From a virus: a stretch of DNA of 64,000 nucleotides. Location: IMG/VR virus record IMGVR_UViG_3300029305_004190. One strand, given 5' to 3'. Below the pieces are notes generated by a model. It did not search any database. It was not told the DNA's origin and saw only the letters and a list, made by a program, of their open reading frames with translations. The translations under genes were made by a program, and so were the position numbers. Every line of letters starts with the position of its first letter. Within the stretch, counting starts at the first letter, position 1. Of this stretch, positions 4,193 through 42,605 are shown one piece after another.

Positions 4193-4265
4193 GGGAGAGT
4201 GGCGCAATCGGTTAGCGCAAGAAGTAGTTTGTCTGTTGTTGGTTCGAGTCCAACCTCTCCCACCA
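4193..4265 (+). tRNA. tRNA-like gene with intact acceptor, D and T arms but no Watson-Crick anticodon stem (possible pseudo-tRNA or non-canonical tRNA)
   Basis: GGGAGAG/CTCTCCC acceptor, GCGC-AATCGGTTA-GCGC D arm, GTTGG-TTCGAGT-CCAAC T arm, ACCA 3' end; region 4220-4237 cannot form a 5-bp anticodon stem. Confidence 0.4.
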
Positions 4266-4291: not shown

Positions 4292-4531
4292 ATGAGGGTT
4301 ATAAATTTTTCCTACAACGGCTTTTCTGGTAGTGTAACTGGTGGGTATGCCAACTACACAGCGGAATTCAAAGAGTGGACAGAAGACCCGGGCGTGGCGG
4401 TCTGCCTTTGTAGTGATGGCGTGGAACGGTTAATACCAACCTTTGCACTTGAGGGATTCTGTGAAAAAGACTATCCGGTGCAGAACAATGAAAACAAGTT
4501 TTTCTATATCGGGAAACCGTGTAAGAGTTAA
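4292..4531 (+). CDS. Hypothetical protein (79 aa)
   Basis: ATG preceded by AGGAGG SD at 4279-4284; the 5' part of the track ORF 4199-4531 overlaps the tRNA-like gene and is rejected. Confidence 0.5.
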   Translation: MRVINFSYNGFSGSVTGGYANYTAEFKEWTEDPGVAVCLCSDGVERLIPTFALEGFCEKDYPVQNNENKFFYIGKPCKS

Positions 4532-4534
4532 TAA

Positions 4535-4643
4535 GGGCAGGTATGCAAGCGGTTAAAGCGGAGTCCGGAAAACTCGCAATTATCAACTTGAAGCGCTACG
4601 TGGTTGATAATGTTCGATGGTTCGAATCCATCCTTGCCCACCA
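4535..4643 (+). tRNA. Atypically long (109 nt) tRNA-like gene with a perfect 8-bp internal hairpin; isotype not assignable (possible type-II/Ser(GGA)-like or insert-containing tRNA)
   Basis: GGGCAGG/CTTGCCC acceptor (one GU), Ser-like D arm (GC-AAGCGGTTAAA-GC), GATGG-TTCGAAT-CCATC T arm, ACCA end; internal TTATCAAC...GTTGATAA 8-bp stem with 15-nt loop; candidate anticodon loop CCGGAAA lacks U33. Confidence 0.4.
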
Positions 4644-4646
4644 TTT

Positions 4647-4729
4647 GCGGAGCTGGCGGAATGGCAGACGCAGCGGATTCAAAACCCGCCGCCTTTGGCG
4701 TAAGGGTTCAAGTCCCTTGCTCCGCACCA
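4647..4729 (+). tRNA. tRNA-Leu (anticodon CAA), type II
   Basis: GCGGAGC/GCTCCGC acceptor, 3-bp D stem GCG/CGC, anticodon loop TTCAAAA, variable arm CGCC-TTT-GGCG, AAGGG-TTCAAGT-CCCTT T arm, ACCA. Confidence 0.7.
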
Positions 4730-4733
4730 ATAT

Positions 4734-4820
4734 GCTGGTATGGCGAAACTGGCAGACGCGATAGATTCAGAGTCTATTGGGCTTATGCTCGTGCAGGTTC
4801 GATTCCTGTTACCAGCACCA
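4734..4820 (+). tRNA. tRNA-Leu (anticodon CAG), type II
   Basis: GCTGGTA/TACCAGC acceptor, ATAGA-TTCAGAG-TCTAT anticodon arm, long variable arm, GCAGG-TTCGATT-CCTGT T arm, ACCA. Confidence 0.75.
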
Positions 4821-4841
4821 AATAACCTTTCGGAGGTACAT

Positions 4842-5174
4842 ATGGCTACAACAAAAATGATTGATTCGCTGTCAGAAGCGCTGCTTCGTGCAAAGGATAG
4901 TGCCTTGATATATGCTGATGCCGAGGACGATGGAACGTGCAACTTTGACACGCCGCAGTTGAGCCTCAGCGAATGGAAACCCAAAGAGGTAGAGCAGGCA
5001 TTTGTCAAGGCTGATTTAAGGTGTGATATCCAAAAGTCCGGTAAAGGACTTATCGTAGACATTCTCGGATGCACAACCGGTCAGGGTTCTCGCAGAACAC
5101 AAATGGCTGAAGCTGTACGAGACAGCTTGAAAGTGGATGGTTACGAAGCCTATGTGTACTATCAGATGGATTAA
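4842..5174 (+). CDS. Hypothetical protein (110 aa)
   Basis: ATG with GGAGG SD immediately after the tRNA cluster; upstream part of the track ORF overlaps the tRNAs. Confidence 0.5.
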   Translation: MATTKMIDSLSEALLRAKDSALIYADAEDDGTCNFDTPQLSLSEWKPKEVEQAFVKADLRCDIQKSGKGLIVDILGCTTGQGSRRTQMAEAVRDSLKVDGYEAYVYYQMD

Positions 5175-5191
5175 GGAAATGGAGGTATTAC

Positions 5192-5857
5192 ATGAGCGCG
5201 AAGATACATATTCCAGCAGACGAGGTATGGTCGTTCTTCTTCAAAAATAAGGAACGCTGTACTGAAGAAATGGTGGAAATCGCATCAAACGATGAAACCA
5301 AATATGCGGTATACCTTACCGAAGATGAGGGGTACCCGATGCTCTCTGTATGCCACGGAGATGACGAACCCGAGTATGAAGAGGGTACAATCAGTAAAGA
5401 TGACTGTACTGAAACCGCAAAAAGAATGTTTATCCGTTACCTTTTCCCGGTGACAGTGACCTGTGGTAAGACGATTTTCCAAGAAAACGTCGAAAAGGAT
5501 GACGAGGTGGACGAGGATGATGACCCGACGGAACAGGATAGACTTGATGAAATCTATGAGCGCGACGATGAATTGACGCTTGCTCTCTGCGAATTCTTGA
5601 AAGTCGTATTTGAGGAGGATACCGATGGCGCAGAACTCCTTGAAACGTATACAGAGGCGGTCATTGCTGAAATCCTTGACGAATTCCTCGATTTATTGGC
5701 AGTCAATCACAGCTTTACGGATATAAGACGACCGACATTCATAAACGACCCCGAGACAGGAGTTGAGTTCTTCACAGAATATCCTTACGACCCTGATGTG
5801 GTTTTTGAGGATGGAATGGCGGCAGTCGAAGAAGAAACCGATGGGGATGCAGAGTAA
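5192..5857 (+). CDS. Highly acidic hypothetical protein (221 aa; D/E-rich), candidate DNA-mimic/anti-restriction protein
   Basis: GGAGG SD; runs such as DEVDEDDDPTEQDRLDEIYERDDE; net charge strongly negative. Confidence 0.55.
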   Translation: MSAKIHIPADEVWSFFFKNKERCTEEMVEIASNDETKYAVYLTEDEGYPMLSVCHGDDEPEYEEGTISKDDCTETAKRMFIRYLFPVTVTCGKTIFQENVEKDDEVDEDDDPTEQDRLDEIYERDDELTLALCEFLKVVFEEDTDGAELLETYTEAVIAEILDEFLDLLAVNHSFTDIRRPTFINDPETGVEFFTEYPYDPDVVFEDGMAAVEEETDGDAE

Positions 5858-5871
5858 TCCCCGTCTACTAC

Positions 5872-5962
5872 GGCGGAGTGGCAGAGATGGCTTATTGCAG
5901 CAGTCTTGAAAACTGTCGGCGGGTCAAACCGCCCGTGGGTTCGAATCCTACCTCCGCCGCCA
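5872..5962 (+). tRNA. tRNA-Ser (anticodon TGA), type II
   Basis: GGCGGAG/CTCCGCC acceptor, GCA-GAGATGGCTTAT-TGC D arm, anticodon loop CTTGAAA, variable arm GGCGG-GTCAAA-CCGCC, GTGGG-TTCGAAT-CCTAC T arm, G-CCA. Confidence 0.75.
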
Positions 5963-5989
5963 ACTTGAGAATAATGGAGGTTTTTGAAT

Positions 5990-6649
5990 ATGCCTGAGTG
6001 TTTAGACAATTTCCCGTGGCGCTCGCTGAAAGGGTGCGGCAGCATGGCTCCGGCTATGTTCAAAGTCGGTGATTATAAGAATGAACGTCTGAAAGACGGA
6101 ACTGAAGTCCAGTTCAGAATCATCGGATTCAATCACGATAAAACCATTACAGGCGACATCGTCCCGTTCACTTGGGAGATGGTTGACTGTATGCCAAATC
6201 GTTACCCGTGGAATGAGCGTGATACGACTGAGGGCTCTTGGGGCGCGACATTCCTGCGGCGTGAAATGAACCAACCGGACGGTCGAATCTTCCGATTGAT
6301 GCCCGATGAAATCGTTGAGCTGGCAGTGCCGGTCATCAAGCTGACTGCCAATACATATACCGGTGAAAACAACATCCTTGAGACTGAGGATAAGTTTTGG
6401 ATAAAGTCTGAAAAAGAGCTTTTTGGACGAAACATCCTTTCAGCACCCGGCGAAGGTCACTGGTACGAATATTACAGACAGGAAGATGTGGCTTGGGGCA
6501 AAAAGCGTAATGGTTCCAACGAGTATACCATGCTGCGTTCCCCTAGTTGCAACGACAGCACCTATTTCTGCATTGTGGACACGGACGGCATTGCGGACTT
6601 TTACTACGCAAGGAATTCCATTGGGCTCGCCCCGGCTTTCTGCTTCTAA
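5990..6649 (+). CDS. Hypothetical protein (219 aa), W/Y-rich
   Basis: ATG 9 nt after GGAGG (5976-5980); no recognisable catalytic motif. Confidence 0.6.
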   Translation: MPECLDNFPWRSLKGCGSMAPAMFKVGDYKNERLKDGTEVQFRIIGFNHDKTITGDIVPFTWEMVDCMPNRYPWNERDTTEGSWGATFLRREMNQPDGRIFRLMPDEIVELAVPVIKLTANTYTGENNILETEDKFWIKSEKELFGRNILSAPGEGHWYEYYRQEDVAWGKKRNGSNEYTMLRSPSCNDSTYFCIVDTDGIADFYYARNSIGLAPAFCF

Positions 6650-7751: not shown

Positions 7752-9236
7752 ATGTTCAAAACAAGCATTGCATCAACGCCTTTGACATCTGATGCAGCGA
7801 ACGCCTATTTCCATAATATCTATGGTGATAACTTCGGAAGCGATAACTCGTTTGTCGCTACACTGCGAGCGTTGGTGGCTCCTCGAATGAAAGAGGATGA
7901 GCACATATACCTTATGTTTGGTCAGTCGAACTACGACACAACCGCTGTAAGTAGTGCACCGACCGAAAGGGTTGTTTCAGCAATCTGCCGCAACTATGAG
8001 CTGAATGATACAAATGGTACGATTATCATTCACAGCTTCACATCCAGCGAAGAAAACAATCTCGCAAATTTCCGAGCAATCGGTGCAAAGTTCACGTCAT
8101 GTTATGACGGATACCACTGTCTCGACAAGGTTAAGGCGTTCTACCATAAGTCTTTTATCGTTGACTGTTATATCAATCCCGAACGGAAAAATGTTATCGT
8201 GTTTGTCGATAACCTCGATACGAAAAAGCTTCACTATCTGCAGGTTTCAATCTTGGCTTTCCTGCCTTGGTACTTTGACCCCGAAGCAGGTGTATCCGAG
8301 CTTGAAATGGAACTCCTTTACTCCCTCCGCGAGACAACTTCGGAAAAATACGAAAGCTGTATTGCAAAAATCGCAGAGGCTTACGACTTCAAGAGCGCAA
8401 GAGTTCGGCAGTTGCTTGCCGGTTTTGAAACTCGCTATGAGCGTATGGAATGCGATAAGGTGCGCAGAGAAATCCAGCAGTTTGACAATGAAATGAATCG
8501 TCTCAACGAACAAATCGGTGTTCTTTTGGGACGAAGAAATGATACTTGTATCAAGCTGATGGGGCTTGAACGTAAAATCGCCGAGGGTGGCGAAGATTCC
8601 GAAATTATGGAATACTTCCTCTGTAACAACAGATTGTATCTTGAGAATGTTACTGACCAAGATATGTATTTTGCTGTCAAGGATTATCTCATGTATTTCG
8701 ACCGTGAAATGGCAGAGAGAGCAATCAGCAATACGCGCAGCTTTGTATATCCGTATGACAACAATACTCATAACGGCATCACGAAAGACGGCATGAAAAA
8801 GCTCATGACAGAGATTTTTGTCAGCGAAGAACCGAGACTGAGAATCAAATTCTGTGCCGCATACCGATTTGCTCTGAATGGAAGCGTTAGTACACAGGGT
8901 GGTCACCGTTTCCCGAGTGAGTTTTCTGACTGTATGCCAAACACCCATATCGACAGATACAACTGTATGGGTAACTATCCGATGACCATCAATAAGCTTC
9001 TTGCAAACCACGATTACATAGGTGCACTTGAACAGTGCATTGCTTCGTGTAAGAGTCTCAACTGGGGTGACAGTACAGTCATGGGTTCCTTTATGGAAAA
9101 TATGTGGGGCAGTGGTCGCACAAACAATCGTTGTATCGAACTTCCCGATGGTCGAGTGGTCAAGCCTGTTGAAGCCATCAAATGGCTTGAAGAACAGGAG
9201 GCAATCTCAAATGTCAAGGAAAAAGAGGAGGAATAA
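7752..9236 (+). CDS. Large Cys-rich hypothetical protein (494 aa) inside the Ubl/JAB/E1 operon
   Basis: GAGAGG SD; central coiled-coil segment; no motif recognised by eye (E2-like HPN motif not found). Confidence 0.65.
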   Translation: MFKTSIASTPLTSDAANAYFHNIYGDNFGSDNSFVATLRALVAPRMKEDEHIYLMFGQSNYDTTAVSSAPTERVVSAICRNYELNDTNGTIIIHSFTSSEENNLANFRAIGAKFTSCYDGYHCLDKVKAFYHKSFIVDCYINPERKNVIVFVDNLDTKKLHYLQVSILAFLPWYFDPEAGVSELEMELLYSLRETTSEKYESCIAKIAEAYDFKSARVRQLLAGFETRYERMECDKVRREIQQFDNEMNRLNEQIGVLLGRRNDTCIKLMGLERKIAEGGEDSEIMEYFLCNNRLYLENVTDQDMYFAVKDYLMYFDREMAERAISNTRSFVYPYDNNTHNGITKDGMKKLMTEIFVSEEPRLRIKFCAAYRFALNGSVSTQGGHRFPSEFSDCMPNTHIDRYNCMGNYPMTINKLLANHDYIGALEQCIASCKSLNWGDSTVMGSFMENMWGSGRTNNRCIELPDGRVVKPVEAIKWLEEQEAISNVKEKEEE

Positions 9237-9243
9237 ACAGAAA

Positions 9244-10149
9244 ATGAGTAAGCCAATCAAAATGACAGAGCAGTACATGAGCGAATGCCGTGCTGACTTT
9301 GAAAAAGCATTACAGCTTACCAAGCTTGCTGATGGTAAGCTGAATTTCACCAAGGTCTTTTCCATTGCAGACAAGAAAGCAACTGTTTACTTCACGGGCG
9401 AGGCATGGACGAAGATGGTCATGCTCATTAAGGAGTTTGACAAGGAAGTAGCATGGCATGGTGTTGCACGTCGTGTCGAAGACGAGTCCAAGGACGAGTA
9501 TATCATCTCCGATATCATGGTATATCCGCAGACAGTTACCGGTGCATCAGTTGAAATGGATACTGAAAAGTATGCAGTGTGGCTGATGGATAACGCCGAT
9601 GATGAGCGTTTCGATAACATCCATATGCAGGGTCACTCCCATGTCAATATGGGAACCACTCCTTCAAGCGTTGACCTCAATCATCAGGAAGAAATCCTGA
9701 ATATGCTTGGTGATGAGGATTTCTATATCTTCATGATATGGAACAAGTCTTTCACAAGCACAAACAAGGTGTATGACCTGAAGAAAAACATCCTGTTTGA
9801 GGACAGAGATATCACCGTAAAGATTATTGGCGGTGTTGAAGACCTTGATGCCTTTGTCAAGGCGGCAAAAGACATGGTAAAAACCAAAGCATATGTCACC
9901 CCATCCTACAATGCCAATGGTGGATATCAGTACAACAAGCCCGCCGGAACTCCGTACAATCCGGTATCTACCACAACCACTCCCAAGTCCGATAAGTCCG
10001 ATGACAAGGAAAATAAGAAGAGTGGTAAAAAGGACAAGCCCAGAACAAAAATCGAGGGCACATCCGGCAAAAATGCTTGTCAGCAAAGCATCTTCGATAT
10101 GTATGATGATGCGGACGACCCGTACAGTTCATATTACAGGGGGTATTAA
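9244..10149 (+). CDS. JAB/MPN+ (JAMM) metalloprotease-domain protein with low-complexity basic C-terminal tail
   Basis: HMQGHSHVNMGTTPSSVD = H-x-H-x7-S-x2-D JAMM zinc motif with upstream Glu residues; GAGGAGG SD; alternative in-frame ATG at 9211. Confidence 0.65.
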   Translation: MSKPIKMTEQYMSECRADFEKALQLTKLADGKLNFTKVFSIADKKATVYFTGEAWTKMVMLIKEFDKEVAWHGVARRVEDESKDEYIISDIMVYPQTVTGASVEMDTEKYAVWLMDNADDERFDNIHMQGHSHVNMGTTPSSVDLNHQEEILNMLGDEDFYIFMIWNKSFTSTNKVYDLKKNILFEDRDITVKIIGGVEDLDAFVKAAKDMVKTKAYVTPSYNANGGYQYNKPAGTPYNPVSTTTTPKSDKSDDKENKKSGKKDKPRTKIEGTSGKNACQQSIFDMYDDADDPYSSYYRGY

Positions 10150-10152
10150 GAT

Positions 10153-10824
10153 ATGGATTTATCCAAAAGCTACGAATATTTTCAGCCTGAAAAGCAGGAC
10201 GACCGCATCCACATCATCGGATGCGGTTCCGTCGGCTCTACAGTCGCATATATGCTGGCACGTACCGGCGTAACCAATTTCACTCTGTGGGATTTCGACA
10301 TTGTCGAACCTCACAACCTCGCAAATCAGATGTTCCGTCAGAAAGATATCCATAAGCCCAAGGTCGAGGCGCTGCTTGATATTATCTGCGAAATCAATCC
10401 CGATATCGCAGAATGTGCAAAGCTCAAACCCGAGGGGTGGAAAGGACAGCAGCTTTCCGGTTATGTGTTCCTTTGCGTAGACAACATCGACCTGCGCAGA
10501 GAAATCGTTGAAAAGCATTTCGATAATCCGTATGTCAAGGCAATGTTCGATTTCAGAACTCGTCTTGAAGATGCACAGCATTATGCTGCTGACTGGTCAG
10601 ACTATAAGATGAAAAAAGATTTCCTTAACTCCATGAATTTCTCTCACGACGAAGCCAAGGAAGAAACTCCTGTGTCAGCGTGCAATGTAACGCTGTCGGT
10701 ATGCCCCACTGTCCTTGTAATCTGCGCAAGAGGTGTGGCGAACTTCATGAATTTCTGGAACGGCAAAGGAATCAAGAAGCTTGTTCTCGACGATGCGTTC
10801 AAGTTCGTCTGTGACGCATTCTAA
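10153..10824 (+). CDS. E1-like adenylyltransferase (ThiF/MoeB/ubiquitin-activating family), 223 aa
   Basis: IIGCGSVGSTVAYMLARTGV Rossmann GxGxxG motif, DFDIVEPHNLANQ (ThiF DxDxxExSNLNRQ-like), LCVDNID; translationally coupled to the JAB gene. Confidence 0.75.
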   Translation: MDLSKSYEYFQPEKQDDRIHIIGCGSVGSTVAYMLARTGVTNFTLWDFDIVEPHNLANQMFRQKDIHKPKVEALLDIICEINPDIAECAKLKPEGWKGQQLSGYVFLCVDNIDLRREIVEKHFDNPYVKAMFDFRTRLEDAQHYAADWSDYKMKKDFLNSMNFSHDEAKEETPVSACNVTLSVCPTVLVICARGVANFMNFWNGKGIKKLVLDDAFKFVCDAF

Positions 10825-10859
10825 AAACAATTCAAAAAAGATGAAAGGAGGTGTGTGCC

Positions 10860-11663
10860 GTGGATGTAAAGATAAGCGACCTTAAAATCGGCGCACAACT
10901 GATACTGGGGAAATATGGTGTCAGAAATAACATTCCTTTCCCGGTTATGTGGCTTAAATGCACTCCAAACAGTGATTTTATAACGCAATCAGCGGTCGAT
11001 TATCTGCCTTTTGATGCAAATGAGCCTGATAATGATGAGTTCAGAGGATATGGAAACCCAAATTACGGATTATCCAATCTCTTGGCATTCATGAATAGTG
11101 CCGATGAGTCATGGTATCGACCGACGCATTCGACGGATACGCCTCCCGACATGATGCATACCACACGGTCATCCCAGTATCAATCACACTATGGTTTTCT
11201 GTATCACTTTGAAGAGTACGAGATTGAAAGCCTTGTGAAGACAACTGTTGAGGTGTCGGGCGAACGTGTCACTTCTGCGATTCGTTTACCATCGAGTGAG
11301 GAACTTTCGGGAGCACAACGATTCGAATTGTTCCAGCGAAAAGGAATCCGAGCTAAAGGCACTGAGGATATGATTGCCAATCGCCTCGGGCATAATTTCG
11401 ATTACAATTCATTCATTCCGGTTTGGGTGCGTAACAAAAGTGTGCACTTTGTCAAGAGCGCATTGTGCCTGAGCAGAAATTGTAGTCTGGATACGGTATC
11501 ACCTCGGAACAGTTCGGGATTGCGTCCTGTTTGTACAATCAATCCTGATACGCCAGTGATTCTCGGCGAAGATGGATACTACTACATAAAACCCCGTCCC
11601 GTACAGCGAAATGTCTATACAGACGAGGAGCTTTTTGAACTCTTAGGTTTGGCGCAGCCTTAA
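10860..11663 (+). CDS. Hypothetical protein (approx. 268 aa)
   Basis: GTG 8 nt after GGAGG (alternative GTG at 10851); no recognisable motif. Confidence 0.55.
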   Translation: MDVKISDLKIGAQLILGKYGVRNNIPFPVMWLKCTPNSDFITQSAVDYLPFDANEPDNDEFRGYGNPNYGLSNLLAFMNSADESWYRPTHSTDTPPDMMHTTRSSQYQSHYGFLYHFEEYEIESLVKTTVEVSGERVTSAIRLPSSEELSGAQRFELFQRKGIRAKGTEDMIANRLGHNFDYNSFIPVWVRNKSVHFVKSALCLSRNCSLDTVSPRNSSGLRPVCTINPDTPVILGEDGYYYIKPRPVQRNVYTDEELFELLGLAQP

Positions 11664-11664
11664 T

Positions 11665-12016
11665 TGCGCCGAAGCTGTAACGCATTTTCCCTCTGGGGAG
11701 CTTTACGCCAAAGGCTAAAGTAACACATTGCTGGAGAAGATATACACCGCCTCCCTGAAAGGAGGAGAAGGCGCCACGAGAAGTCGGCGAGCCAATCGCC
11801 GGATTGCGGTCGTCTTGACATTTGAATATCACATATACATTTCTTTGTCAAGCCACTTTCCACACTTTTCCACATCACAATCGGTACATTTGGATTACTT
11901 TTCTCGAAAAGACTCCGAAATCACCGTCAGCCCGTGCCTCAGAACTCGAACGAAGAGTCTGGGCAGAAAGCTGCACTTTTACAAAGGTTACAGCCTCTAA
12001 TTTTGGATAGGAGGTA
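11665..12016 (+). ncRNA. Putative structured non-coding RNA upstream of the reverse transcriptase (candidate retron msr/msd-like template RNA)
   Basis: 352 nt with no ORF; several perfect hairpins (CGGCGA-gccaa-TCGCCG; CTTGACA-25nt-TGTCAAG; CTTTTC-tc-GAAAAG); imperfect inverted repeat gaagctgtaacg (11671-11682) / ggttacagcctc (11986-11997) resembling retron a1/a2 boundaries. Confidence 0.3.
11701..11739 (+). repeat. Copy 1 of a ~40-nt paralogous motif (ctttacgcc-aaaggctaaagtaacacattgctggagaag), followed by a GC-rich hairpin region
   Basis: About 80% identical to copies at 13215-13253 and 13488-13528, all in + orientation. Confidence 0.55.
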
Positions 12017-13159
12017 ATGAATATGATTTATATCACAGTAAAACAATCTCCGATATATCATCAAATGACTATCGAAGAACTCCTTATGCAGGATTTCACT
12101 GCTCCTGCAGTTATAAATCCGAATTTGACAAACACAAAAACATACGAAGTGGAGTATGTTAGCGAAAGATTCATGCGCAGACTTGATGTGGATATGCTTA
12201 TTGCAAAGCTCGTCCAGTTCAATCAGTCGGTTGAATCGCTGCGCCAACAGAAACGCAGCGACCTGTATGAAACATTCTATATTCCTAAAAAGTCAGGTGG
12301 TCTTAGAAGAATCGACGCACCCAAAGCTGAACTTATGGATGCGTTGCGTCGGCTCAAGACCATCTTGGAAGAAGATTTCCATGTTCTCTATCATACATCA
12401 GCATTTGCCTATGTAAAAAAGCGTTGTACAGTTGATGCAGTTAAGCGCCACCAAGCCAACAACAGTAAGTGGTTTGGCAAGCTCGACCTCCACGATTTCT
12501 TTGGAAGCACCACTTTGGATTTCGCTATGTCTATGCTTTCAAAAATCTTCCCTATCAGCGAAGTGGTTAAGGTGGAGACAGGCAGAAATGCATTGCAATG
12601 CGCGCTCGAACTTGCTTTCCTTAATGGCGGACTTCCGCAGGGGACTCCCATTTCACCGCTCATCACAAATGTTATGATGATTCCGGTTGATTTCAAGTTG
12701 GCAAATACCTTGAGAGAGTTTGAACAGCAGAAATTTGTGTACACCAGATATGCGGATGACTTTATCATTTCGTCCAAATATGACTTTGATGTACATAAGG
12801 TCGAAGAACTTGTTGTTTCAACTCTCAAGGATTTCAATGCTCCATTTTCAATCAACGCTTCTAAAACAAGATATGGCTCATCTGCAGGACGAAATTGGAA
12901 TCTCGGTGTAATGCTGAATAAAGACAACGAGATTACAGTTGGTCACAAAAAGAAACACCAGCTTCAGTCTATGATGTTCAACTATATCACCGATAAACGT
13001 AAGGGCATCGAGTGGAGTCGTGAAGACATCATGGTAATGCAGGGACTGCATAGCTATTATCGCATGGTTGAAGAAACAGTGATTGATGCAATCGTAAAAC
13101 ATATCAATGAAAAGATGGGCGTAGATGTATTGCGCCTTATCAAAGAAGATTTAAGATAA
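12017..13159 (+). CDS. Reverse transcriptase, retron-type (RT-only, 380 aa)
   Basis: FYIPKKSGGLRRIDAP (RT motif 1/2), LDLHDFFGST (motif 4), GLPQGTPISPL (motif 5), YTRYADDFII (YxDD); C-terminal region aligns by eye with retron Ec86 RT around the VTG region (here NLGVMLN) and downstream (IMVMQGLHSYYRMVE ~ HVRGWLSFILSVD); GGAGG SD. Confidence 0.85.
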   Translation: MNMIYITVKQSPIYHQMTIEELLMQDFTAPAVINPNLTNTKTYEVEYVSERFMRRLDVDMLIAKLVQFNQSVESLRQQKRSDLYETFYIPKKSGGLRRIDAPKAELMDALRRLKTILEEDFHVLYHTSAFAYVKKRCTVDAVKRHQANNSKWFGKLDLHDFFGSTTLDFAMSMLSKIFPISEVVKVETGRNALQCALELAFLNGGLPQGTPISPLITNVMMIPVDFKLANTLREFEQQKFVYTRYADDFIISSKYDFDVHKVEELVVSTLKDFNAPFSINASKTRYGSSAGRNWNLGVMLNKDNEITVGHKKKHQLQSMMFNYITDKRKGIEWSREDIMVMQGLHSYYRMVEETVIDAIVKHINEKMGVDVLRLIKEDLR

Positions 13160-13214
13160 ACAACTGGCGGTTGGACAAACCGTCCACCCTGTAATGCATA
13201 GCCTTTCGAGGCGC

Positions 13215-13253
13215 TTATCGCTTATGGCATAAGTAACACATTGGTGAGAAAGA
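13215..13253 (+). repeat. Copy 2 of the ~40-nt motif (cgcttatggcataagtaacacattggtgagaaag), followed by a GC-rich hairpin region
   Basis: Shares aagtaacacattg core and flanks with copies 1 and 3. Confidence 0.55.
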
Positions 13254-13487
13254 AGGAAGGCGGGCGACGCGACGCCGGGCTCCGAAGACCGGTCATCGCA
13301 CAACTTCAGTCCAATTCATCTGATGAGATTTACCTTCAAGCCCTTGTCGCACAATAAGACACTGCTCATCGCTCACCAGCAAAGCAGGTTCTGCAGCATG
13401 AATCCGGTATCCTTCTGCTGGCAGCCATCCTACGTAGATTACAGGAAATAAAACACATTTGCAATGAATAATACTCTATTGAGTATG

Positions 13488-13528
13488 CTTTACGCTCATG
13501 GCTAAAGTACCAACTTGCTCGGAGAACA
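13488..13528 (+). repeat. Copy 3 of the ~40-nt motif (ctttacgctcatggctaaagtaccaacttgctcggagaaca), followed by a GC-rich hairpin region
   Basis: Shares ctttacgc...ggctaaagta...ttgct.ggagaa with copy 1. Confidence 0.55.
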
Positions 13529-13747
13529 GAGGGCACGCACTGGAGGTGCCGTCCCGGTGACCATGGTCTGGCAAGAGCTTGGACAACATCCTCAGAAAGC
13601 CCAAACCACTGTGCCACAATAAGGACGACCCGAATTCAACTGTAAAATATAATTTTTACAGCTCTATAAAAGATGTCTCCTAAGCTTCCGCCCAGTCTTC
13701 AGATGCCTGCTTATCCTATGTAGATTGCAAATGAGAAAGGAAAATTC

Positions 13748-14434
13748 ATGATATATGTAACCGGTGATATCCACGCACACATCGACATCGGGAAGTTAAA
13801 TACACAGAGATTTCCCCAACAAAAATCATTGACTAAATCGGACTATCTCATCGTATGCGGTGATTTTGGACTGGTATGGGATAACTCCAAAAGTGACCTG
13901 TATTGGCGAGATTGGCTGTCAGATAAACCATTTACCACATTGTGGGTGGATGGAAACCATGAGAACTTTGAACTGTTATATCAGTTCCCGCTTGAAGATA
14001 AATTCGGCGGAAAGGTTCGTGAAATCGCACCCAGCATATATCATTTGGATAGAGGACAAGTCCTCACCATTGACAATAAGACGTTCTTTGTTATGGGCGG
14101 TGCTGCTTCGCATGACAAAGAATATCGCAAGGAACATATATCTTGGTGGAAAGATGAGTTGCCAACCGTCGCAGAGATGGAACGAGGTATCAAAGCACTT
14201 GAAGCCAATAACTGGACAGTTGATTTCGTTATTTCACATTGCGCTCCGCGCTCTGTCCAGACAATGATTGCCAGTTGGTATGAAAGTGACCCATTGGTCA
14301 GCTTCTTTGAACGAGTTCGAACAGACCTTAATTTTAAGAAGTGGTTCTTTGGTCACTATCATGTTGATAAACAGCTTAACGAGCAGTTTATTGCACTGTA
14401 TAACAATATTATTCCTCTCGATACAGTTTGTTGA
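13748..14434 (+). CDS. Calcineurin-like metallophosphoesterase
   Basis: GDIHAH, CGDFG, GNHE motifs in canonical order. Confidence 0.8.
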   Translation: MIYVTGDIHAHIDIGKLNTQRFPQQKSLTKSDYLIVCGDFGLVWDNSKSDLYWRDWLSDKPFTTLWVDGNHENFELLYQFPLEDKFGGKVREIAPSIYHLDRGQVLTIDNKTFFVMGGAASHDKEYRKEHISWWKDELPTVAEMERGIKALEANNWTVDFVISHCAPRSVQTMIASWYESDPLVSFFERVRTDLNFKKWFFGHYHVDKQLNEQFIALYNNIIPLDTVC

Positions 14435-14515
14435 CAAAAATGAAATCTGGAACATATTGTGGCGCAGTTGTTTAATGACTATTTGATAGAATGTGTTATT
14501 GCATATAACACATAC

Positions 14516-14589
14516 AGGGGTGTGGTGTAATGTAACATAGCGGTCTCCAAAACCGCCTGATTGGGGTTCGAATCCCTACACCCCTGCCA
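14516..14589 (+). tRNA. tRNA-Trp (anticodon CCA) with atypical D loop lacking GG
   Basis: AGGGGTG/CACCCCT acceptor, GCGGT-CTCCAAA-ACCGC anticodon arm, TGGGG-TTCGAAT-CCCTA T arm, G-CCA; D arm GTGT-AATGTA-ACAT. Confidence 0.65.
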
Positions 14590-14836
14590 GTTGTCGGGTC
14601 GCTCCCGACTGATGTGAGAGTGTGAGCAGGAATCCTCACGGAGAATAACAATGTCCGCTGAAAACAGTATGAATGCGTACCACGACAGGTCAATGAATCT
14701 GTCACGCTTAACATACCGACAATCTAAGCGGGAACTGCTCCAAAAAAGACATTTTAACTGGATGTCGCGCCCTGCTCGGGAGAAAGAGCCGCCACCCGGA
14801 GGGCGACCATGGTGAAAAAAACATCCGGGGCACTAA

Positions 14837-14931
14837 TGGGGTATCGCCAAGCGGTAAGGCATCAGACTTTGACTCTGACAAGAGCGGTGTAATGCCCTCG
14901 CTCGCCGGTTCGAATCCGGCTACCCCAGCCA
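14837..14931 (+). tRNA. 95-nt tRNA with anticodon TTG (Gln) but an unusually long (~24 nt) variable arm
   Basis: TGGGGTA/TACCCCA acceptor, GCC-AAGCGGTAA-GGC D arm, TCAGA-CTTTGAC-TCTGA anticodon arm, variable arm GAGCG-12nt-CGCTC, GCCGG-TTCGAAT-CCGGC T arm, G-CCA. Confidence 0.55.
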
Positions 14932-14957
14932 ATAAAAATCAAGAAAGGAATTGAACA

Positions 14958-15515
14958 ATGAAACCTTATGATGTAGGCTTAATATGTGGACGATTCCAGA
15001 CTTTTCATAAAGGACATGAGAAGTTGGTGGAAACAGGCTTGATGCTCTGTGACCGTCTTCTCATTCTCATCGGAAGCTCTCAGGAATGTGGTACAGAACG
15101 TAATCCATTAAATATCAATACAAGAACCAAGATGCTGAAGATGGTATATGGTGATGACCCAAACATTATGATATATGGTCTCCCTGACCTGTCAAATGAA
15201 AATGATATCCGTCCTGAATGGGGACGTTATTTGCTTGCCAACGCAGACCGATACATCTATAAGAATCCCGATGTCATGATTTATGGCAACGATGAGAGTA
15301 GAAGCGCTTGGTTTGCAAAAGAAGATTTGAAATATACAACAGAACTTATCATCAATAGAAGCGAGCTTCCTATCTCCGCGACTATGTTAAGAAAATACAT
15401 GGTTGAGGATAACCGCAAGGCTTGGATGGAGCTTGTGAATCCAAAGCTTCATAAGATGTATGATGAACTTCGCCGTGAACTCATGACAGTTGAATTCTAT
15501 CAACAAATGTCATAG
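14958..15515 (+). CDS. nadM: Nicotinamide/nicotinate mononucleotide adenylyltransferase (NMNAT, NadM/NadR-type cytidylyltransferase fold)
   Basis: ICGRFQTFHKGHEKLV (HxGH nucleotidyltransferase motif), 185 aa, C-terminal ISATMLR; GGAA SD. Confidence 0.8.
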   Translation: MKPYDVGLICGRFQTFHKGHEKLVETGLMLCDRLLILIGSSQECGTERNPLNINTRTKMLKMVYGDDPNIMIYGLPDLSNENDIRPEWGRYLLANADRYIYKNPDVMIYGNDESRSAWFAKEDLKYTTELIINRSELPISATMLRKYMVEDNRKAWMELVNPKLHKMYDELRRELMTVEFYQQMS

Positions 15516-15674
15516 TCAATAAACAAGGGTTTACAGTAATGACTCCAAACCAGAAACCCTGAGACCTACCATGTAGGGCGACAGCGATTGTGTAAGGCAA
15601 CGTATTGCGCTGTTAGGGAGTTATGTGAAAGTCAAGCCATCCAATTCTGGATGTTCCGTTATAGCCGGCATCAT

Positions 15675-15768
15675 GGAGAGTTAAGCATAATTGGTACTGC
15701 AGCGGATTGCTAATCCGTTCGCCGTCATTTAGTGCGGCGTGGAGGTTCGAGTCCTCTACTCTCCGCCA
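15675..15768 (+). tRNA. tRNA-Ser (anticodon GCT), type II
   Basis: GGAGAGT/ACTCTCC acceptor, GCGGA-TTGCTAA-TCCGT anticodon arm, CGCCG-TCATTTAGTG-CGGCG variable arm, GGAGG-TTCGAGT-CCTCT T arm, G-CCA. Confidence 0.75.
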
Positions 15769-15771
15769 AGT

Positions 15772-15847
15772 GCTGGAATAGTTCAGTTGGCAGAACAGGG
15801 CATTCGTACTGCTCAGGTCTTCGGTTCGACTCCGAATTCCAGCTCCA
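15772..15847 (+). tRNA. tRNA-Thr (anticodon CGT)
   Basis: GCTGGAA/TTCCAGC acceptor, GTTC-AGTTGGCA-GAAC D arm, GGGCA-TTCGTAC-TGCTC anticodon arm, TTCGG-TTCGACT-CCGAA T arm, T-CCA. Confidence 0.8.
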
Positions 15848-16050
15848 TTTAGGAGAGGCTATACTCCGAGGTACCCTTGAGGTCTGGAGCAACAAGGAAA
15901 AAGAAAGTCCCCAGAATGTTTTACGGTGTTCAGACAAACCGCCATAGAGCAGAAGTGTTTAGGGTCAGTGCTCCCATATAGCAAGTGTGGAGAGACGGTA
16001 AGGACAAGGCGTGGAAATCTGCAGAAGCGCGAAAAACCCTTCACAAATAC

Positions 16051-19706: not shown

Positions 19707-20912
19707 ATGATTGAGTTGCAAGGCAAGTATGCAACTGCGAAGGTGTTCACCGATGTGGTTGATAATGAATCAATCTCACAGGTAATCAACCTTTTGAATC
19801 AACCCTACATAGAGGGCAGCAAAGTTCGTATGATGCCGGACATCCATGCTGGAGCTGGATGCACCATCGGCACCACTATGACAATCAGTGATAAGATTTG
19901 CCCGAATCTTGTTGGCGTTGATATCGGATGCGGAATGGAAACCATCCGCATCAAGGAAACTTTCATCGAGCCGCAGAAGCTGGATAAAGTTATCCGTTCA
20001 GAAATTCCATCCGGTTTTGAAATCCGTAAGAATCCGCACCGTTTCGCTAAAGGCATTGATTTATCTGCATTGTATTGCGCCAAGAAGATTAAGCTCGACC
20101 GAGCATATAACAGCATTGGCACACTTGGTGGAGGTAACCACTTTATCGAAGCGAACAAAGACGAAGATGGTCATATCTACATCGTAGTTCACTCCGGTAG
20201 TCGCCATCTCGGTTTGGAGATTGCTAATCTGTATCAGGAGGCGGCGTATGCTTCACTCACCTCTTACAGCAAGGATGAAATCGAAAAGATTATCGAGGAA
20301 CTGAAGGCTGCGGGGCGGCAGAAAGAAATTCAGAATGTTCTGAAAAACTTGAAAGCCAAGCATTCTCCGATTCCGAAACCTCTTGCTTATGTTGAGGGAG
20401 AACTGTTCGAGCAGTATCTGCACGATATGCGCATTGCTCAACAGTACGCCAACCTCAACAGAAAAGCAATGATGGACACTATCGTGAAAGCGATGGGTTT
20501 CCACGTTGAAGAACAGTTTACCACAATTCATAACTACATTGATGTGGAAAATATGATTCTGCGCAAGGGAGCTGTATCGGCTCAGGCTGGCGAACGCCTG
20601 CTGATTCCTATCAATATGCGTGACGGTAGTTTGGTGTGCACTGGTAAAGGCAACGAGGATTGGAACTGTTCCGCACCTCACGGTGCCGGTCGGTTAATGA
20701 GCCGAAGCGAGGCAAAGCAAACCTTCACTGTTTCTGAGTTCAAGAAACAGATGGACGGTATCTACACCACTTCTGTTGGACGAAGCACACTCGATGAATG
20801 CCCGATGGCATATAAGAATATGGAAGATATCGTGAAAAACGTAGAACCAACTGTCACGATTGATTCCGTTATCAAGCCTATCTACAACTTCAAGGCGGGT
20901 GATGAAGAATGA
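19707..20912 (+). CDS. rtcB: RtcB-family RNA 3'-phosphate ligase
   Basis: VGVDIGCGM, GGGNHFIE, VHSGSRHLG, HNYIDVEN, CSAPHGAGR motifs in RtcB order; AAGGAGGG SD. Confidence 0.9.
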   Translation: MIELQGKYATAKVFTDVVDNESISQVINLLNQPYIEGSKVRMMPDIHAGAGCTIGTTMTISDKICPNLVGVDIGCGMETIRIKETFIEPQKLDKVIRSEIPSGFEIRKNPHRFAKGIDLSALYCAKKIKLDRAYNSIGTLGGGNHFIEANKDEDGHIYIVVHSGSRHLGLEIANLYQEAAYASLTSYSKDEIEKIIEELKAAGRQKEIQNVLKNLKAKHSPIPKPLAYVEGELFEQYLHDMRIAQQYANLNRKAMMDTIVKAMGFHVEEQFTTIHNYIDVENMILRKGAVSAQAGERLLIPINMRDGSLVCTGKGNEDWNCSAPHGAGRLMSRSEAKQTFTVSEFKKQMDGIYTTSVGRSTLDECPMAYKNMEDIVKNVEPTVTIDSVIKPIYNFKAGDEE

Positions 20913-21151
20913 TTGTTTTTCTGGTTTTCTTTTTCATCTTCCTGTACATCCTTATAGGCGCGGCTGTCACATATTACCTACATTATTTGTACAGCAATAA
21001 AGCGTGCTATAAACCCAAAGAAACATATGATTCCATTTCAACCCCTTCATACTGTGTGGTGATAGGAATTTTCTGGCTCTTTGCAGCACCGTTTGCTTTT
21101 GCATTATATTATTCACGTTACGGATTTCCGCAATCCAAAGAAAAGAGGTAA
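20909..21151 (+). CDS. Small hydrophobic membrane protein (80 aa)
   Basis: Two predicted TM segments (MIVFLVFFFIFLYILIGAAV..., IGIFWLFAAPFAFALYY); overlaps upstream stop. Confidence 0.45.
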   Translation: MIVFLVFFFIFLYILIGAAVTYYLHYLYSNKACYKPKETYDSISTPSYCVVIGIFWLFAAPFAFALYYSRYGFPQSKEKR

Positions 21152-21157
21152 CATCAA

Positions 21158-22672
21158 ATGATTCAATACAATCCACTTTTGTGTCTGGACTTCTACAAGA
21201 CTGCTCATGCGGAACAGTACCCGCAGAGCTTGACCAAGATGGTTTCTTACTACACTCCTCGTATGAGCCGACTGGCTGATACGGAAAAGGTAACTCTGTT
21301 CGGATTGCAGGCATTCATTCAGGAGTATCTTGTCGATGCGTTCAATGAGAACTTTTTTGGTAAGCCCTACCCGAAGGTTCTTGAGGAGTACAAACGTGTC
21401 CTCGGTGCAACAATCGGTACGACTGGTGTCGGCGAAAAGCGCATCGAAAAACTTTACAACCTTGGCTATCTCCCCCTGAAGATTCGTGCGGTGCCTGAGG
21501 GTACACGAACCAATATCAAGGTTCCGCAAATTGAAATTTCCAATACACACCCCGACTTCGTATGGCTTGTCAACAGTATCGAAACGATGTTGTCCAGTAC
21601 AATGTGGCACACGCAGGTTTCCGCAGAAGTTGGCTACAGATACCGTCAAATCGTCAATGAATATGCAGATGAAACCTGTGATGACAGCGTTGCTCGTGCA
21701 AGACTTCTTGGCGATTTTTCAATGCGTGGTCAGGAAAGTGTTGAGAGCGCAACAAAGAGTTCTGCGGCATTCTGCTTGAGCTTCCTCAACACGGCAACAG
21801 TCCCTGCAATTCTGTGGCTGGAAGACAATTACGATTGTGACTGTGAAAAGGAGCCCGTTGCCTTTGGCGCTCTTTCCACAGAGCACAGTGTTATGTGTTC
21901 CAACTATGCTGTAGATGGTGATGAGATTACACAGATTCGAAGACTTCTGACAAGCATCTATCCTCACCAGAATTTCTCGATGGTCAGCGACAGCTACGAT
22001 TACTGGAATCTGGTTGACAATCTTTTGCCACAGCTCAAGGACGAAATCCTTGCTCACGATGGTTTCATTTCCATTCGCGGAGACAGTGGTGACCCTGTCG
22101 ATGTTGTTACCCAGACAGTATTTAAGCTGTGGGATATCTTCGGCGGTACCGTAAACAGCAAGGGGTATAAAGTTCTCGACCCTCACGTCAAAGCCATCTA
22201 TGGCGATAGCATTACACCACAGAGATGCGAGGCAATCTATAAGATTCTAAAAGAGAACGGCTTCGCAATCAACAATGTTTCTCTTGGCGTTGGTTCATTC
22301 TCAATGCAGTGCCTTGAAACCATTACAATGGAGCATATGGGTAACTGTGCGATGGGTGTCAGAACTCATTATTCACCGTATACTCGTGACACGTTCGGCA
22401 TTGCGGTTAAAGCTACTTATGCCGAAGACGAGAACGGCAATCCCATCATGATTTTCAAGAACCCCAAGACCGACAGCGGAAACTTCAAGAAGTCGCAGCG
22501 TGGTTGTTGCCGTGTATATAAGACAGATAATGGATATGCGTATGAGGACGGCTTAACTTGGGCAGAAGCTCAGGAAGAGAACGAACTGATTACGGTATTT
22601 GAGAACGGTGAATTTGTCAAGCGCTACACGCTGAACGAAGTTCGCCAGAATCTCCATGGGGGTAATTTCTGA
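21158..22672 (+). CDS. nadV: Nicotinamide phosphoribosyltransferase family protein (NAMPT/NadV, or the homologous Namat)
   Basis: N-terminal NPLLCLDFYKTAHAEQYP (NAMPT D-x-YK-x-H-x-x-QYP signature), 504 aa typical NAMPT length, GDS/ GVGS phosphoribosyltransferase segments; GAGG SD. Confidence 0.85.
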   Translation: MIQYNPLLCLDFYKTAHAEQYPQSLTKMVSYYTPRMSRLADTEKVTLFGLQAFIQEYLVDAFNENFFGKPYPKVLEEYKRVLGATIGTTGVGEKRIEKLYNLGYLPLKIRAVPEGTRTNIKVPQIEISNTHPDFVWLVNSIETMLSSTMWHTQVSAEVGYRYRQIVNEYADETCDDSVARARLLGDFSMRGQESVESATKSSAAFCLSFLNTATVPAILWLEDNYDCDCEKEPVAFGALSTEHSVMCSNYAVDGDEITQIRRLLTSIYPHQNFSMVSDSYDYWNLVDNLLPQLKDEILAHDGFISIRGDSGDPVDVVTQTVFKLWDIFGGTVNSKGYKVLDPHVKAIYGDSITPQRCEAIYKILKENGFAINNVSLGVGSFSMQCLETITMEHMGNCAMGVRTHYSPYTRDTFGIAVKATYAEDENGNPIMIFKNPKTDSGNFKKSQRGCCRVYKTDNGYAYEDGLTWAEAQEENELITVFENGEFVKRYTLNEVRQNLHGGNF

Positions 22673-23139
22673 TGTCAATCAAGATTATTGACGGCGACCT
22701 GTTCAACACAAAAGCAAAGTATATCTGCCATCAGGTGAATTGCCAAGGTAGGATGGGGAGTGGTGTTGCTAAACAGGTTCGAGTCAAATTCCCGGAAGCA
22801 TACAAGGCATACTCTGACAGATGCAACGGCGAAAAGAGTATGAAAGACCCGCTCTGGACACTGGGCAAAGCACAGTTTGTGAGATGCAGCAACGGTGTTA
22901 CTATCGTAAATATGTATTCGCAAGGTAATTATGGCTACGATGGTAAACAGTATACAGACTATTCAGCTTTCCAGAATTGTCTGCACGAAATCCGAAAAAC
23001 AGTTCCCACTGATGCTGTGATTGCAATGCCGTATAAAATCGGATGCGGTCTTGGCGGCGGCGATTGGAACATTGTCATGGAGCTAATCGAAAAAGAACTT
23101 CCCGACCACACCGTAGAGTTGTGGAGAAAAGAGGCGTAA
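22672..23139 (+). CDS. Macro-domain (ADP-ribose binding/hydrolase) protein
   Basis: ICHQVNCQGRMGSGVAKQV and later CGLGGGDW glycine-rich loops characteristic of macro domains; 155 aa. Confidence 0.7.
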   Translation: MSIKIIDGDLFNTKAKYICHQVNCQGRMGSGVAKQVRVKFPEAYKAYSDRCNGEKSMKDPLWTLGKAQFVRCSNGVTIVNMYSQGNYGYDGKQYTDYSAFQNCLHEIRKTVPTDAVIAMPYKIGCGLGGGDWNIVMELIEKELPDHTVELWRKEA

Positions 23140-23140
23140 T

Positions 23141-23896
23141 ATGCTTGTTGACCCCAAGAAAACAAAGGACGATGTAGTCCAGTGGATTCGCAATTACTTT
23201 GCTGAAAATGGCAAAGATTGTTCAGCAGTTATCGGTATCTCCGGTGGAAAGGACAGCAGTATTGTAGCCGCTCTTTGCGTCGAAGCACTTGGTGCGGATA
23301 GGGTTGTCGGTGTTTTAATGCCAAATGGCAGGCAGAAAGACATTGCTGACTCAACTCGTCTTGTGGAAGCGCTCGGAATCCAAAGCATTGTTGTGAACAT
23401 CGGCGGTGCATACTGCAACATGGTTGATGTTCTTGGACGTACAGTTCCGGGTGGAATCAGCGAACAGGCAAAAATCAATCTTCCTCCCAGACTCAGAATG
23501 GCAACACTCTATGCAGTAGCTCAGTCCATTCCGGGTGGCGGTAGAGTTGCAAATACTTGCAATCTTTCGGAAGATTTCGTTGGTTACTCCACGAAATTCG
23601 GTGACAGTGCAGGTGACTTCAGTCCTCTTGCCAACCTTATGGTTCACGAAGTTGTACAGATTGGTCACGAGCTTCCCATCCCCGCTGACCTTGTTGATAA
23701 AGTGCCGTCCGATGGGCTGTGCGGTAAAACCGATGAAGATAACCTCGGTGTAAGTTACCGCGAAATTGACAGCTACATTGAAACAGGAACCTGTGCGGTA
23801 GCCGCGCATGAGCATCGCATTGAGGATTTACACAGAAAGAATCTTCATAAGGTAAATCCCATGCCTGCGTTCAGCAAATATAGTGTTCAATCGTAA
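23141..23896 (+). CDS. nadE: NH3-dependent NAD+ synthetase (NadE)
   Basis: PP-loop SGGKDSS, overall NadE architecture (251 aa), coupled to macro gene. Confidence 0.85.
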   Translation: MLVDPKKTKDDVVQWIRNYFAENGKDCSAVIGISGGKDSSIVAALCVEALGADRVVGVLMPNGRQKDIADSTRLVEALGIQSIVVNIGGAYCNMVDVLGRTVPGGISEQAKINLPPRLRMATLYAVAQSIPGGGRVANTCNLSEDFVGYSTKFGDSAGDFSPLANLMVHEVVQIGHELPIPADLVDKVPSDGLCGKTDEDNLGVSYREIDSYIETGTCAVAAHEHRIEDLHRKNLHKVNPMPAFSKYSVQS

Positions 23897-23909
23897 GGTG
23901 AAACACAAG

Positions 23910-25196: not shown

Positions 25197-25220
25197 CATC
25201 CAAGAAGAGGAGGATTCCAA

Positions 25221-25619
25221 GTGGGTAAAAGCAATAAACCCAAGCCACCGCAGTTTTCACACTCCATCAGTGCGTTCTGTAAGCTGATGGAAGATGCAAA
25301 AAGTGATTATGCGTGGAATTTCAGCGAGGTCAACCGAATGGACAGGCTTACACAGGATTACCTCCACAAACTTGAGCTGGAAGACCTCGATTATCAAGAA
25401 CGAGCCAAAATCGCAACTCAGTTGAGAAGATGCAGACAGGCTCGCAGAGCGTGTAAAGACACGGTCGAGGTTTTGGAACCGCTCGTCCAATTTTTAGAAA
25501 GCGATAAAGGCAAAAACCTTTTGAACCTTGTGCGTGAAGCGTTAGGAAAGACCAGAAAAGTTGAAGAACGCATGGAAACCCGCACATACATACCAAGAGT
25601 CTTAGAACAGGAGGAATGA
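25221..25619 (+). CDS. Hypothetical protein (132 aa)
   Basis: GTG start after AAGAGGAGG SD; basic/helical. Confidence 0.55.
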   Translation: MGKSNKPKPPQFSHSISAFCKLMEDAKSDYAWNFSEVNRMDRLTQDYLHKLELEDLDYQERAKIATQLRRCRQARRACKDTVEVLEPLVQFLESDKGKNLLNLVREALGKTRKVEERMETRTYIPRVLEQEE

Positions 25620-25620
25620 A

Positions 25621-26710: not shown

Positions 26711-26713
26711 CCA

Positions 26714-27004: not shown

Positions 27005-27025
27005 TTCAAAAGGAGGTAAAGTAAT

Positions 27026-27520: not shown

Positions 27521-27524
27521 TTCA

Positions 27525-27815: not shown

Positions 27816-27824
27816 GGTGATAAG

Positions 27825-42588: not shown

Positions 42589-42605
42589 CAAAGGAGATGA
42601 ACAGC

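Follow-up and report, generated by a model that had tools for sequence, protein, structure and literature searches.

The 352 nucleotides (nt; 11665–12016) in front of a reverse transcriptase (RT) gene in a 64,000-nt viral DNA (IMG/VR record IMGVR_UViG_3300029305_004190; this whole stretch is hereafter the window) raise the question of whether they encode that enzyme's template RNA, as an earlier note proposed from three hairpins, or are ordinary spacer. Comparison with related loci leads us to conclude, with a probability of roughly 0.75, that 11671–11997 on the plus strand is a retron-type msr-msd non-coding RNA (ncRNA) and the first of three paralogous units flanking one RT. We read it so because it is closed by an inverted repeat (a1/a2), has a G directly after a1 followed by two covarying hairpins, and lies on the same strand as, and upstream of, a retron-clade RT. 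Feature coordinates are collected in Table 1.

Aligning the gap with ten relatives reveals invariant blocks at the 5′ side (CTGTAACG, with two hairpins after it) and at the 3′ side (ATGTAGGTTACAG); the ~250 nt between them are almost unalignable. TGTAAC and GTTACA, the core of an 11-nt inverted repeat (11671–11681/11987–11997), also emerge from a repeat search of the window. The minimum-energy fold of unit 1 recovers a1/a2 and both hairpins (hp1 and hp2), with z = −4.2 and none of 100 shuffles as good. In retrons the a1/a2 stem sets the branching G beside the template's 3′ end (PMC7736814, PMC8632793). By analogy, G11682 is the predicted branch or priming nucleotide, and the two hairpins are putative msr stem-loops for RT recognition.

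The hairpins cited by the earlier note all lie in the middle segment, 11735–11986, and are present as sequences: CGGCGA-gccaa-TCGCCG (11785–11801), CTTGACA...TGTCAAG around a 25-nt loop (11814–11852) and CTTTTC-tc-GAAAAG (11898–11911). The last is correct in sequence, but a loop of 2 nt is too tight on steric grounds, which makes a stem of 5 bp with a 4-nt loop the realistic form. As evidence the three carry little weight: first-order Markov simulations of 352 nt yield a mean of 1.9 perfect stems of ≥6 bp (P = 0.28 for at least three), and the fold of the entire 352 nt is only slightly more stable than those of shuffles (z = −2.2, 4 of 100 as good). Nor is the 7-bp stem conserved. It is broken in a strain contig with a 100% identical RT protein (L112) by an uncompensated TT>AC at 11815–11816, which costs two pairs; the first hairpin gains a pair in that strain, and relatives at 78–87% RT identity carry a hairpin of other sequence in its place.

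The description of the gap as free of open reading frames (ORFs) does not hold literally, as the ORF listing gives 11728–12000 (90 aa, TTG start) and others. These frames are unconserved, relatives differing by frame-breaking indels of 1–2 nt, and even the longest stop-free runs are of borderline significance at most (P = 0.05 to 0.37); on both grounds a small protein, or a stop-free template like that of the defence-associated reverse transcriptase (DRT) DRT2, was rejected. Unit 1 is directly upstream of the RT on the same strand, ending 25 nt before its start, and a template ncRNA is supported, through a1/a2, the post-a1 G and the two 5′ hairpins and not through the hairpins first cited. Two further paralogous units flanking the RT had been overlooked. 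No sigma-70-like promoter was found on the plus strand of 11200–12016, the TTGACA at 11815 having no usable −10 element. At 11644–11651, inside the end of the upstream ORF and ~20 nt before a1, is TAGGTTTG, which fits the Bacteroides-type −7 promoter motif (TAnnTTTG).

The 5′ module was followed through related loci with a covariance model, R1 (69 positions, three seeds). It gives exactly three matches in the window, all beside the RT (11667–11734, 13181–13247 and 13451–13521). Some 60 related loci, with RTs as little as 41% identical, also have matches next to the RT; in those loci all matches at E ≤ 0.01 lie on the RT strand. Standard pairs form in 99.8% of the cells of the R1 alignment, which is fitted to its model; both sides have changed in 10 of 13 pairs, and compensatory cells number 148. 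None of 500 shuffles reached these values, and sliding the partners lowered pairing to 36–45%. All five modelled pairs of hp1 have changed on both sides across 39 distinct sequences (99.5% of cells paired), as have five of the eight pairs of hp2 (100% paired). A plain MAFFT alignment, fitted to no structure, also led RNAalifold to hp2, with four covarying pairs. G–U and U–G pairs mark the plus strand as the transcribed one. One locus with an RT 45% identical (L029) has no R1 match even with filters off; by eye, it contains an a1/a2 pair (TTTAATCTC/GAGATTAAA) and two hairpins.

The terminal helix was sought separately, by searching downstream of each 5′ module for a complement to the bases just before a G. 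Nearly all units have a helix of 8–16 bp abutting this G. Its arms vary by unit and lineage while remaining complementary (TGTAAC/GTTACA, TGTAAT/ATTACA, TGCAAT/ATTGCA, TGCAGT/ACTGCA and TATGAT/ATCATA), and the helix beats 95% of shuffles (p ≤ 0.05) in 68 of 86 distinct units. Validated units number 136 and are 191–401 nt long (median 308); G follows a1 in every one, the finder having considered G candidates only, and 128 have a G immediately 5′ of a2. At the level of sequence, these comparisons establish a conserved, structured plus-strand RNA family, tied to the RT and built on a retron frame.

Units 2 and 3 occupy the 588-nt gap after the RT (13160–13747), 10 nt apart and each with its own a1/a2, giving the order unit 1, RT, unit 2, unit 3 with units of 258–327 nt. 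Unit 2 (R1 match of 52 bits) pairs CCTGTAAT with ATTACAGG and its fold recovers the frame; unit 3 (48 bits) has a perfect 10-bp a1/a2, a frame supported by RNAalifold on orthologues, and an end 14 nt before the start of a metallophosphoesterase gene. Unconstrained minimum-energy folds recover a1/a2, hp1 and hp2 in all three window units. Both downstream units contain a conserved island, TTGTCGCACAATAAG (13343–13358) in unit 2 and CTGTGCCACAATAAG (13608–13623) in unit 3, which in relatives reads ATTGTGCCACAAT and forms a 5-bp hairpin 80–100 nt upstream of a2; this island may mark a stop for reverse transcription. A persisting island of unit 1 is GTCAAGC. A minus-strand ORF at 13366–13617 (83 aa) is probably spurious.

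Table 1. Features of the RT locus, in window coordinates.
Feature	Position	Strand	Basis and remarks
ncRNA unit 1, retron-like msr-msd candidate	11671..11997	+	Covariance-model match 11667-11734 (66 bits, E = 5e-12); a1/a2; fold
a1, 5′ arm of closing inverted repeat (GAAGCTGTAAC)	11671..11681	+	10/11 positions complementary to 11987-11997
G directly 3′ of a1, predicted 2′-OH branch/priming nucleotide	11682	+	No variation at this column of alignments A1 and A3
hp1, msr-like hairpin 1 (TCCC-tctg-GGGA)	11688..11699	+	Covariation
hp2, bipartite msr-like hairpin 2 (GCTTTA-C-GCC-aaa-GGC-TAAAGT)	11700..11721	+	Covariation; RNAalifold
Fast-evolving middle and 3′ segment, putative msd template	11735..11986	+	Divergence; ends in G (11986) abutting a2; extent inferred
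a2, 3′ arm of closing inverted repeat (GTTACAGCCTC)	11987..11997	+	GGTTACA block invariant in relatives; 11 nt upstream of RT ribosome-binding site
Reverse transcriptase, retron clade, 378 aa	12023..13159	+	RVT_1, PADLOC, NCBIfam, solved structures; alternative ATG 12017
ncRNA unit 2	13188..13445	+	a1 13188-13195, G 13196, hp1 13201-13212, hp2 13213-13234, a2 13438-13445
ncRNA unit 3	13456..13733	+	a1 13456-13465, G 13466, hp1 13471-13486, hp2 13487-13508, a2 13724-13733

Multiplicity is the rule in this family: 50 of the 57 related loci with a validated unit have at least two, and the number per RT ranges from two to four, most commonly one upstream and two downstream (26 loci). Unit number is plastic. 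A locus with an RT 83% identical (L111) lacks unit 1, leaving just 80 nt (1420–1501) to separate the RT from the upstream gene, and two others (L002 and L003) lack unit 2 downstream of the RT. Some relatives have units behind tRNA arrays, several kilobases away from the RT. In the region 4321–6142 of one of these (L045), a 14-tRNA array with a skipping-rope RNA (RF02924, 5449–5531) lies between the RT and further units; one unit begins exactly where the last tRNA ends, which suggests release of units by tRNA processing.

The RT ORF (12017/12023–13159) matches RVT_1 at 2.6e-20. Among the PADLOC matches listed, all 25 are retron RT models (best RT_II-A, 6e-47); the NCBIfam model retron_St85_RT is matched at 1e-50 (173 bits, below the curated cut-off of 235). 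Retron Ec83 RT is the closest solved structure (9e-22), and the top nine PDB matches are all retron RTs or retron-type polymerases. Models of group II intron and DRT enzymes are matched much more weakly than those of retrons. Rejected were a group II intron (TIGR04416, 86 bits against a cut-off of 300, and no group II intron Rfam match over 9000–16000) and a defence RT of the unknown-group or abortive-infection type (UG/Abi; Drt2, 2.7e-11 and 43 bits against 390; Drt3a, 7e-7 and 29 bits against 200). By sequence, then, the RT falls among retron RTs, under the curated cut-offs. Start codon ATG 12023 is most likely, because GGAGG at 12009–12013 sits 9 nt before it and homologues are 378 aa long; the upstream gap then spans 11664–12022.

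Retron RTs carry VTG in RT7 (region Y) and NAxxH (region X), the G and H being called most conserved (PMC7736814). In an alignment with Ec83 RT, VTG becomes NLG and NAKIH becomes AVKRH in the phage enzyme. Across the phage RT family NLG and the H are invariant (xxKRH replaces NAxxH, KRH being present in most members), as are YADD and LPQGTPISP, and an N-terminal extension of ~70 aa is present on the window RT. In some relatives (L026, 4282–4514; L054, 3001–4377) an insert of ~230 nt breaks up or extends the RT match; it may be an intron or other insertion, and no Rfam family reached its gathering score in it.

Parts of the units evolve at very different rates, the 190–250 nt beyond the two 5′ hairpins being the fast ones. 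Close relatives share 96.6% nucleotide identity in the RT (90.9% at third codon positions) and 99–100% in the 5′ modules; middle segments are 76% (unit 1), 84% (unit 2) and 92% (unit 3) identical. Within one tight subgroup, RT third positions diverge by 1.2% against 4–5% for the middles. Compared with the near-identical strain L112 (1214–1453), the variable part of unit 1 (11735–11974) has 17 differences in 240 nt, and the RT nine in 1,137 nt, all synonymous; units 2 and 3 differ at zero and one positions. The template-like segment of unit 1 changes faster than a rough synonymous estimate, with relaxed constraint, recombination and diversifying selection as candidate causes. Strain differences in units are mostly transitions with no excess at adenines, and the middle segments are C-rich and T-poor. 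Since the middles diverge while the 5′ modules stay near-identical, the template-like part appears free to vary, which fits a retron, where the RT reads the msr and the msd sequence is free. The variable segments had no match in 50,697 phage records (distant mode), and no second copy of any unit part occurs in the window, the paralogous 5′ modules aside; a spacer-like role was rejected on this absence of targets.

Several observations weigh against a retron assignment. Fitting the R1 alignment to its model somewhat inflates the pairing statistics. The variable part shows no single long msd stem-loop; it folds into a domain of several hairpins, and the short long-range helix that closes this domain covaries weakly. 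Rfam scans gave no retron family and no group II intron in 9000–16000 at E ≤ 10, and no retron family at gathering score in four relatives; nor did these scans place any other family over the units. The RT stays below the curated St85 cut-off and its signature triplets are degenerate, with G and H alone kept. PADLOC, Pfam and NCBIfam scans of the neighbours detected no known retron effector adjacent, yielding E1/ThiF, a weak JAB match and a metallophosphoesterase only. Several templates per RT are without described natural precedent in the literature searched, and we infer the production of msDNA (multicopy single-stranded DNA), with its 2′–5′ branch, purely by analogy.

Some of these features would suit a structured partner RNA that serves the RT in a non-retron mode, its 5′ module acting as a scaffold, with a short internal template or another form of priming (protein or 3′-OH), as in DRT2, DRT9 and DRT10. 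NLG for VTG, xxKRH for NAxxH, the lack of a clear msd stem-loop and the length of the units all lean that way, and TTGTCGCACAATAAG and CTGTGCCACAATAAG could delimit a defined short template. We nevertheless think it unlikely, given the strength of the St85 match over Drt2 and Drt3a, and a helix that abuts an invariant G in the retron 2′-OH priming geometry and is kept by compensatory change. It is more doubtful still that the units are cis-regulatory leaders or RNA-processing elements, acting on translation or stability of the RT and metallophosphoesterase without any reverse transcription. The a2 arms of units 1 and 3 do end close to a gene (11 nt before the RT Shine–Dalgarno sequence and 14 nt before the metallophosphoesterase start), the gap has no sigma-70-like promoter, and the units lie among tRNA arrays processed from long transcripts. 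But unit 2 precedes unit 3 and not a gene, other loci place units after tRNAs or kilobases from any RT start, and a leader has no need of a terminal helix joining an invariant G to the 3′ end. Moreover, the units lie beside or within a few kilobases of a retron-clade RT in all loci examined, and nowhere else in the window. A leader function is compatible with a dual role, as in the hyRNA of type VI retrons (10.1101/2025.10.22.683967).

A phage RT with an upstream, template-like non-coding region that is hypervariable between strains also recalls the template repeat (TR) of a diversity-generating retroelement (DGR), which is copied with adenine-specific changes into a variable repeat (VR) of a target gene. 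This is very improbable here: no unit is repeated in the window beyond the paralogous 5′ modules, strain substitutions are ordinary transitions without adenine bias, no Avd-like gene was found, and what varies is the RNA gene and not a target protein. At the site of LPQGTPISP in the phage RT, DGR RTs have an I/LGxxxSQ motif. As for chance hairpins in an ordinary spacer or 5′ untranslated region, the three perfect hairpins do not exceed the number expected and one is disrupted in a near-identical strain, yet the 5′ module and a1/a2 are kept, with covariation, in ~60 loci and three paralogues, and unit 1 folds at z = −4.2. The comparative data already refute this reading, to which we give next to no credence.

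The surroundings are those of a virus: the window looks like part of a large, tRNA-rich gut phage genome. All 12 of its tRNA genes are on the plus strand, and it encodes a DNA polymerase, a DnaB-like helicase, DNA and RNA ligases, RtcB, a CCA-adding enzyme and nicotinamide phosphoribosyltransferase (NAMPT). A nucleotide search against GenBank phages gave no match to the window. RT relatives are located on IMG/VR viral contigs (50–130 kb) and on contigs binned into gut metagenome-assembled genomes of mixed taxonomy (mostly Clostridia, some Bacteroidota), and the lineage spans thousands of metagenome contigs from human and animal gut. ARAGORN calls a tRNA at 4193–4265 of undetermined identity, with a 2-base anticodon (ag), and an unusually long tRNA-Gln(ttg) of 95 nt at 14837–14931, possibly with an intron.

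Upstream of the RT, a conserved block (7752–10824) encodes a 494-aa protein without family match (g494), a 375-aa JAB/MPN protein (Rpn11-like) and a 223-aa ThiF/E1-like adenylyltransferase. The order g494, JAB/MPN, ThiF/E1, a variable 270-aa protein, unit 1 and RT is kept in relatives with RT identities as low as 45%, and the RT is present in 43 of 43 ThiF loci that reach far enough downstream. Among the relatives sampled, the RT therefore travels with the block, unlike sporadic cargo. The E1/JAB pair resembles the corresponding parts of Bil systems or of Cap2/Cap3 from the cyclic-oligonucleotide-based anti-phage signalling system (CBASS), here phage-borne. Downstream of the RT are the metallophosphoesterase, tRNAs and an NMNAT-like (cytidylyltransferase-like) gene, and further on RtcB, NAMPT and an RNA ligase. 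These RNA-repair and NAD-salvage genes, which also include an ATP-dependent DNA ligase and two nucleotidyltransferases (one the CCA-adding enzyme), cluster at 13748–15515, 19707–28907 and 42543–44982. Phages use such tRNA-repair and NAD-salvage genes against anticodon nucleases and NAD-depleting defences, and together with the tRNAs they look like a counter-defence island.

On a retron model, the units would be transcribed together with the RT and neighbouring tRNA arrays and possibly freed by tRNA processing. The RT would bind the conserved 5′ hairpins; the a1/a2 helix would bring the 2′-OH of the G (11682, 13196 or 13466) beside the template base that lies 5′ of a2 (11986 for unit 1), and the variable segment would be copied leftwards into a short single-stranded DNA branched onto its RNA. 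Distinct a1/a2 arms would keep each RNA folding on itself, and a cell could hold up to three different msDNAs. Our preferred guess for their role is counter-defence or inter-phage competition rather than abortive infection, because the neighbourhood has tRNA-repair and NAD-salvage genes and no toxin. Extending this, we tentatively picture a natural retron array in the conserved core of a widespread gut-phage lineage, in which one RT serves two to four separately folding templates that evolve at or above the neutral rate and are inherited with E1/JAB, in a setting of tRNA, tRNA-repair and NAD-salvage genes. The msDNAs might be used offensively, as decoys or inhibitors of host defences and rival phages, or in the phage's own DNA metabolism; we regard this fuller picture as possible, at somewhat less than even odds.

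Retrons are understood as bacterial anti-phage systems, akin to toxin–antitoxin pairs, of one RT, one ncRNA and an effector. By RT sequence, the nearest are of the St85/Sen2 (II-A) and Ec83/Ec78 (I-A) types. The phage locus shares with bacterial retrons a retron-clade RT, a same-strand ncRNA directly upstream, a1/a2, the G after a1, two conserved msr-like hairpins and a varying template. It differs in belonging to a conserved block of a large tRNA-rich phage rather than a bacterial defence island; in having two to four ncRNA units per RT instead of one, each 191–401 nt long with no obvious single msd stem; and in its RT (NLG, xxKRH and the N-terminal extension of ~70 aa), with no known effector (toxin) adjacent. 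What is new here is that a retron-like system is carried by a phage, appears to have several templates and shows no recognisable effector; the full-text literature, in which few subscription journals were covered, yielded no description of natural retrons that belong to phages or have more than one ncRNA. Reverse transcription of the units, if it occurs, would add to retron biology a use in viruses, probably a counter-defensive one, and an offensive array, if real, would invert the accepted role of retrons in bacterial abortive infection.

Other systems come close in single respects. Stand-alone (msr-msd)–RT cassettes without effector are known from RT clades 2 and 11 (Mestre et al. 2020, PMC7736814), so the missing effector is not strictly disqualifying; they likewise combine a retron RT and ncRNA without a recognisable effector, but are bacterial and have a single ncRNA. 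In the type VI Retron-Vpa2, a bacterial defence system, the hyRNA holds a repressed toxin coding sequence that msDNA derepresses (bioRxiv 10.1101/2025.10.22.683967). It too is a long structured transcript joining a template to the translation signals of a downstream gene, whereas the phage units contain no conserved ORF. Gut-phage DGRs also unite a phage RT, a nearby non-coding template and strain-level hypervariability; here no TR/VR pair (64 kb searched), adenine pattern or Avd gene was found, and the RT is of the retron clade.

The closest parallel in layout is engineered. In 'multitrons' (PMC10370050), one RT serves several ncRNA/msd units in an array with tandem transcription, as it would here; those are synthetic genome-editing constructs, and the phage locus is a candidate natural counterpart. 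If its units are reverse-transcribed, nature already has the multitron design, with distinct a1/a2 pairs letting one RT serve several templates. The contrast of invariant 5′ modules with fast template segments is, in addition, a natural experiment on which RNA parts the RT reads, and a natural multitron, if true, could be a source for multiplex editing of genomes in gut Firmicutes or Bacteroidota.

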